235 nucleotides of DNA from Escherichia coli (lineage in GTDB: Bacteria; Pseudomonadota; Gammaproteobacteria; Enterobacterales; Enterobacteriaceae): the NCBI RefSeq assembly GCF_003334815.1, contig NZ_QOWO01000139.1. One strand, written 5' to 3'. Positions 1 to 235 of this stretch are shown here, in pieces (the first letter of the stretch is position 1; each line of letters opens with the position of its first letter). Position numbers and translations under genes: made by a program. The notes beneath the pieces were generated by a model. The model did not search any database, was not told the DNA's origin, and was given only the letters and a program-made list of their open reading frames with translations.

Positions 1-90
1 AAGCGATACCGCTCTTACAGAGGAGAGGTAGGGCAAACCGCCCCTAATGTTCTCCAAAGAGATTTCAAGGCTACGCGCTGAGAGATCCCC

Positions 91-235
91 TCATAATTTC
101 CCCAAAGCGTAACCATGTGTGAATAAATTTTGAGCTAGTAGGGTTGCAGCCACGAGTAAGTCTTCCCTTGTTATTGTGTAGCCAGAATGCCGCAAAACTT
201 CCATGCCTAAGCGAACTGTTGAGAGTACGTTTCGA
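91..235 (-). CDS. Hypothetical protein, C-terminal fragment (partial ORF entering from right window edge; unverified)
   Basis: Minus-strand frame with codons at + positions 234..94 contains no stop for 47 codons and ends at TGA (reverse complement of tca at 91-93). Translation read from the sequence: RNVLSTVRLGMEVLRHSGYTITREDLLVAATLLAQNLFTHGYALGKL*. Composition is protein-like (Leu/Ala/Thr/Val-rich, no Trp/Cys). The only in-frame ATG in the window (+ 204..202) has no properly spaced Shine-Dalgarno motif, so a real gene would start upstream of the window. Against: an open run of 47 codons has roughly 10% chance per frame in random sequence, and a second minus frame (235..74, stop TAG at 73..71) is also open across this span. 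No family was recognised. Confidence 0.2.
   Translation of the reverse strand, partial: RNVLSTVRLGMEVLRHSGYTITREDLLVAATLLAQNLFTHGYALGKL

Follow-up and report, generated by a model that had tools for sequence, protein, structure and literature searches.

A 235-nt stretch of Escherichia coli DNA (hereafter the window) carries two overlapping minus-strand frames that remain open to its right edge, raising the question of whether either belongs to a gene and what the sequence to their left represents. The original prediction read the more protein-like of the two, frame A, as the possible 3´ end of a leftward-transcribed gene whose function could not be assigned, the other, frame B, as an off-frame read, and positions 1-90 as downstream non-coding DNA. 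Six-frame translation reproduced both frames exactly, in position as well as in peptide: frame A, with its first base at 234, reads RNVLSTVRLGMEVLRHSGYTITREDLLVAATLLAQNLFTHGYALGKL and then stops at TGA (93..91), and frame B, with its first base at 235, yields a 54-residue Ser/Arg/Asn-rich peptide followed by TAG (73..71).

The window lies across two nested insertion sequences

Megablast against 5,426 complete E. coli genomes returned a single full-length match at 100% identity, in strain STK78-E (NZ_CP162185.1, 4047021-4047255), together with thousands of other records that matched the left part of the window alone or the right part alone. Given these left-only and right-only matches, we suspected a junction between two repeated elements. 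It is now nearly certain that the window is the junction of two nested insertion sequences, IS10 inside IS150, on the E. coli chromosome; the identity and boundaries of both elements, the target duplication, the reading frame, the protein family and the fold are directly established by the analyses described below, and the features are collected in Table 1. The insertion site lies inside IS150 orfB, between nhaA and mokC, and is present in one of the 5,426 genomes. The annotated gene order in STK78-E is nhaR, nhaA, an IS150-family pseudogene (+), an ISVsa5 transposase (-), an IS3-family remainder, mokC, an IS421 transposase and dnaJ.

Table 1. Features in the window and annotated STK78-E genes that end within it.
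Feature	Position in window	Strand	Comment
IS150 (IS3 family) orfB coding sequence, frame +1, interrupted by IS10	1..77	+	100% identity to IS150 copies
Left copy of the 9-bp target-site duplication GGCTACGCG	69..77	.	Second copy at L001 4907-4915
IS10 inside-end segment	78..235	-	IS10 nt 1329-1172; element runs on past the right edge of the window
Inside-end 23-bp imperfect terminal inverted repeat	78..100	.	Overlaps the stop and the last 2-3 transposase codons
GATC (Dam methylation site)	84..87	.	Inside the terminal repeat; sole GATC in the window
Transposase stop TGA	91..93	-	IS10 nt 1314-1316, 13 bp from the element tip
Frame A	94..234	-	Codons 356-402 (last 47) of the 402-aa IS10/ISVsa5 transposase
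Frame B	74..235	-	Chance open stretch, not a gene
IS150-family transposase pseudogene	ends at 78	+	STK78-E annotation
"IS4-like element ISVsa5 family transposase"	stop codon ends at 91	-	STK78-E annotation

Other kinds of elements were also sought across the window. No match was obtained in an Rfam scan of the window at a permissive threshold, and promoter and terminator scans were likewise negative over its whole length. The RNAs known from IS10 and its promoters pIN and pOUT belong to the opposite end of the element. Two short, chance-like ATG ORFs cross the IS150/IS10 junction, one of 33 aa (15-116, -) and one of 21 aa (47-112, +); these are most likely chance ORFs, chimeric over the insertion point.

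In STK78-E (locus L001, 2701-6966), mokC/hokC lies between the interrupted IS150 and IS421, and the same order, IS150 - hokE - IS421, was seen in another strain (locus L002, 401-2477). There are earlier descriptions of IS elements beside chromosomal hok loci.

The right part of the window is the inside end of IS10

The IS10 element in STK78-E spans L001 3578-4906, a length of 1,329 bp (CTGAGAGATCC...GGATTCATCAG), and is delimited by CTGAGAGATCCCC at the inside end, from window position 78, and by GGGGATTCATCAG at the outside end. Read inward, the two tips, CTGAGAGATCCCC and CTGATGAATCCCC, are identical at 17 of 23 positions, and the repeats begin CTGA. The transposase gene opens with an ATG at IS10 nt 108 and its sense codons run to nt 1313, so that the stop codon lies close to the tip, at a distance of 13 bp, and the last two to three codons fall within the terminal repeat.

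In comparison with IS10 (IS10-Right of Tn10; ISVsa5), a member of the IS4 family, window 78-235 is 100% identical to copies in hundreds of genomes, and the length of 1,329 bp, the ORF at nt 108-1313, the 17/23 repeats, the 9-bp duplication and the inside-end GATC all agree; the element itself shows no difference and the insertion site alone is particular. Identity to the reference IS10 was judged through a protein cluster (P0003) and annotated ISVsa5 DNA copies. The segment from 78 to 235 was present, at a coverage of at least 80%, in 1,017 of the 5,426 E. coli genomes, with 4,896 occurrences in all, and it is also common on enterobacterial plasmids.

Among the top BLAST rows, matches to unrelated IS10 insertions ran 14-20 bases past the tip, to window positions 58-64. 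We attributed this overhang to flanks that probably resemble the IS10 target-site consensus, together with the ranking of the rows by coverage. A mobile element that is longer than the boundary at position 78 implies was ruled out by the exact 9-bp duplication and the length of 1,329 bp.

The STK78-E copy has an intact transposase ORF, two intact ends and the GATC at 84-87; judged from its sequence and from the literature, it would be expected to be active. The terminal repeat at 78-100 is the site that the IS10 transposase itself binds and cuts. According to PMC5371812 (after Roberts et al. 1985), Dam methylation governs transposase binding at the IS10 ends, and PMC5371812 and PMC5006887 describe it as governing both this binding and transposase transcription, thereby coupling transposition to replication. 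On the basis of this literature, the same Dam control would be expected to operate at the GATC of the inside end in the window.

The left part of the window is IS150 orfB, and IS10 is a solo insertion

Over all 77 nt, window positions 1-77 match IS150 copies from 2,833 of the 5,426 genomes at 100% identity, and they share the orfB frame with IS150; the STK78-E copy differs in that it is broken by IS10, and it is also annotated as frameshifted. Immediately after the far IS10 tip in STK78-E, the orfB frame resumes with PNEKWVTDV..., as in the intact IS150 of L002, which has a single copy of GGCTACGCG at the insertion point. In-silico removal of IS10 and one duplicate gave a sequence collinear with the intact IS150 (99.5% over 1,477 nt). 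A 9-bp duplication and the consensus sequences NGCTNAGCN and NPuCNNNGPyN have been described for IS10 targets (PMC4574204). When compared with these, GGCTACGCG agrees with the classical NGCTNAGCN at five of the six specified positions and fits the relaxed NPuCNNNGPyN in full. IS10 has jumped into IS150 orfB at this point, duplicating the 9-bp target GGCTACGCG. Since IS10 is inserted in orfB, window positions 1-77 are IS150 coding sequence, on the other strand, and positions 78-100 are the IS10 terminal repeat; the earlier reading of 1-90 as downstream non-coding DNA is therefore incorrect.

IS10 entered the literature as the arms of Tn10, with the inside end facing the tet region (PMC5006887), and the segment might be the inside end of an IS10 arm in this composite, tetracycline-resistance transposon. 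We consider this extremely improbable, as the inside end here adjoins IS150, the identical 9-bp duplicate stands beside both IS10 tips, IS150 is restored when IS10 is removed, and no tet genes are annotated within the 7.2-kb STK78-E neighbourhood. The element is a clean solo insertion of IS10 in IS150 orfB and not a Tn10 arm.

Frame A is the 3´ end of the IS10 transposase gene

In the STK78-E context, frame A extends upstream of position 235 to 406 open codons, which include a 402-aa, ATG-initiated gene. This gene is annotated as WP_001339197.1 (L001 3591-4799, -), the translation of which ends in ...MEVLRHSGYTITREDLLVAATLLAQNLFTHGYALGKL and the stop codon. The full-length 402-aa protein matched the IS4-family model NF033591 of NCBIfam at 404 bits, where the cutoff is 152 (E=4e-121), and Pfam PF01609 (DDE_Tnp_1) covered residues 90-327 (E=2.4e-24). 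The protein is also 100% identical to protein cluster P0003, "ISVsa5 family transposase", with 4,185 members, and 1,882 homologues were found at E<=1e-10. These observations uphold the original view that frame A is the genuine frame and forms the 3´ end of a gene that is transcribed leftward and reaches beyond the window. Frame A is genuine coding sequence, the C-terminus of the IS10 transposase; as the peptide is the exact C-terminus of this enzyme, the opinion that no function could be assigned to it no longer holds.

The family search that had been proposed for both translations was informative for the full-length protein, through NF033591 and DDE_Tnp_1, and negative for the peptides by themselves: none of the three window peptides (47, 54 and 25 aa) matched NCBIfam. 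Since the 47-aa fragment alone matches no family model, its identification depends on the context and on exact identity. Transcription of the gene runs leftward from pIN, which lies close to the outside end of the element, ~1.1 kb beyond the right edge of the window. Its product is a DDE (RNase-H-fold) enzyme of the IS4 family, which moves the element by cut-and-paste with a DNA hairpin as intermediate.

Frame B is an off-frame read

The earlier suspicion that frame B is an off-frame read proved right. In the STK78-E context the frame comprises 58 codons in total, just four of which are gained upstream of the window, and its peptide had no family match in NCBIfam. The TAG at 73..71 sits in the flanking duplicated IS150 target DNA, outside IS10, so the end and the length of frame B would vary with the insertion site. 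As a test of chance, the codons of the transposase gene were shuffled 2,000 times and off-frame open runs were scored; runs of at least 54 codons occurred in 78% of trials and of at least 58 codons in 67%, and the actual IS10 has several further off-frame runs of 47-77 codons.

A second IS10 allele, in garR of strain APEC E12049 (L003 1301-2629), shows 12 differences over 1,329 nt. Eight of these are coding, of which six fall in the last 47 codons (window 107-158, IS10 nt 1249-1300); the other four are non-coding and sit towards the outside end, at IS10 nt 24-47. As the differences cluster at both ends of the element, the APEC E12049 IS10 might be a mosaic allele. A codon-position comparison of frames A and B using this allele has just six differences in the window to draw on; as these are uninformative, protein-level conservation in distant homologues was used instead.

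The stop-free stretch of 54 codons within the window is what would speak for IS10 carrying, at its inside end, a second, overlapping gene in the +1 register, with frame B, or both frames, translated. This proposal has very little chance of being correct given the 58 codons in context and the missing family match, a stop codon in target DNA that makes the end differ with each insertion site, and a run length of a kind that arises in 67-78% of codon shuffles and stands beside the other runs of 47-77 codons in IS10. The second IS10 allele alters three frame B residues, through six nucleotide changes that are too small a sample to discriminate between the frames. The opposite proposal, that the DNA is non-coding and both frames are open by chance, has nothing but their short length within the window in its favour and is excluded by the 406 open codons of frame A, its strong family and domain matches and its 1,882 homologues at E<=1e-10. 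We also put the odds close to nil that frame B is a read-out peptide dependent on the insertion site, or that the clustering of allele differences at the C-terminus reflects functional diversification of the transposase; nothing here supports either. Frame A is thus the coding frame, and frame B is an accidental stop-free alternative frame.

Conservation and predicted fold of the transposase

The transposase was aligned with 29 homologues of 48-81% identity, giving an alignment of 30 sequences. Conservation is high at the positions to which we assign the catalytic triad and the YREK motif: D97, D161, E292 and Y285 are invariant among the 30 sequences, and conservation of R288 and K299 is at least 90%. 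The base-flipping residues W265 and M289 are invariant as well; PMC2705183 treats these two and the YREK motif and describes a hairpin and base-flip mechanism. The tail encoded in the window aligns over its full length, with V358, L359, S360, R363, G365, E367 and L402 invariant among the 30 sequences; conservation among the homologues is 74% for residues 356-370 and about 31% for residues 371-402. All 30 homologues end on the same invariant Leu, and in IS10 the final codons reach into the terminal repeat to which the protein binds.

A sequence search of the PDB found no entry matching the transposase, and there is no solved structure of the Tn10 transposase. An AlphaFold2 model built from the 30-sequence alignment had a mean pLDDT of 84.6 and a pTM of 0.84, with predicted helices at residues 361-370 and 378-395 (pLDDT about 90). 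When the model was compared with the PDB by Foldseek, the sole significant matches were to Tn5 transposase (E about 1e-10, probability 1.00), and the five best PDB matches were all Tn5 transposase, with TM scores of 0.52-0.58. The model thus predicts a Tn5-like fold, with an RNase-H-like core, an inserted subdomain and a C-terminal helical region. The DDE and YREK active site and the hairpin/base-flipping chemistry are common to the IS10 and Tn5/IS50 transposases (1MUH, 4DM0; PMC2705183), whereas identity in the structural alignments is 12-13% and the IS10 protein has 402 aa, against about 477 aa for Tn5/IS50.

Residues 356-402 sit after the catalytic DDE domain, and by position the predicted helices of the tail appear to be the counterpart of the helical region at the C-terminus of Tn5 transposase. 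In the Tn5 synaptic complex, the C-terminal helices of the transposase contribute to dimer contacts. By analogy, the C-terminal helices of the IS10 transposase may help hold the two-end synaptic complex together; given the conservation of about 31% over residues 371-402, we infer this role from position.

Implications

The IS10 biology at this locus is textbook and already annotated in RefSeq, and the insertion site alone is rare; the finding carries little weight beyond correct annotation. It illustrates that a short, featureless open frame at the edge of a window may turn out to be the tail of a mobile-element gene that is very common, and that the seemingly non-coding DNA next to it can be another gene, on the opposite strand, broken by the insertion. 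As the IS10-in-IS150 junction is present in only one of 5,426 complete E. coli genomes, it could act as a strain-specific marker.
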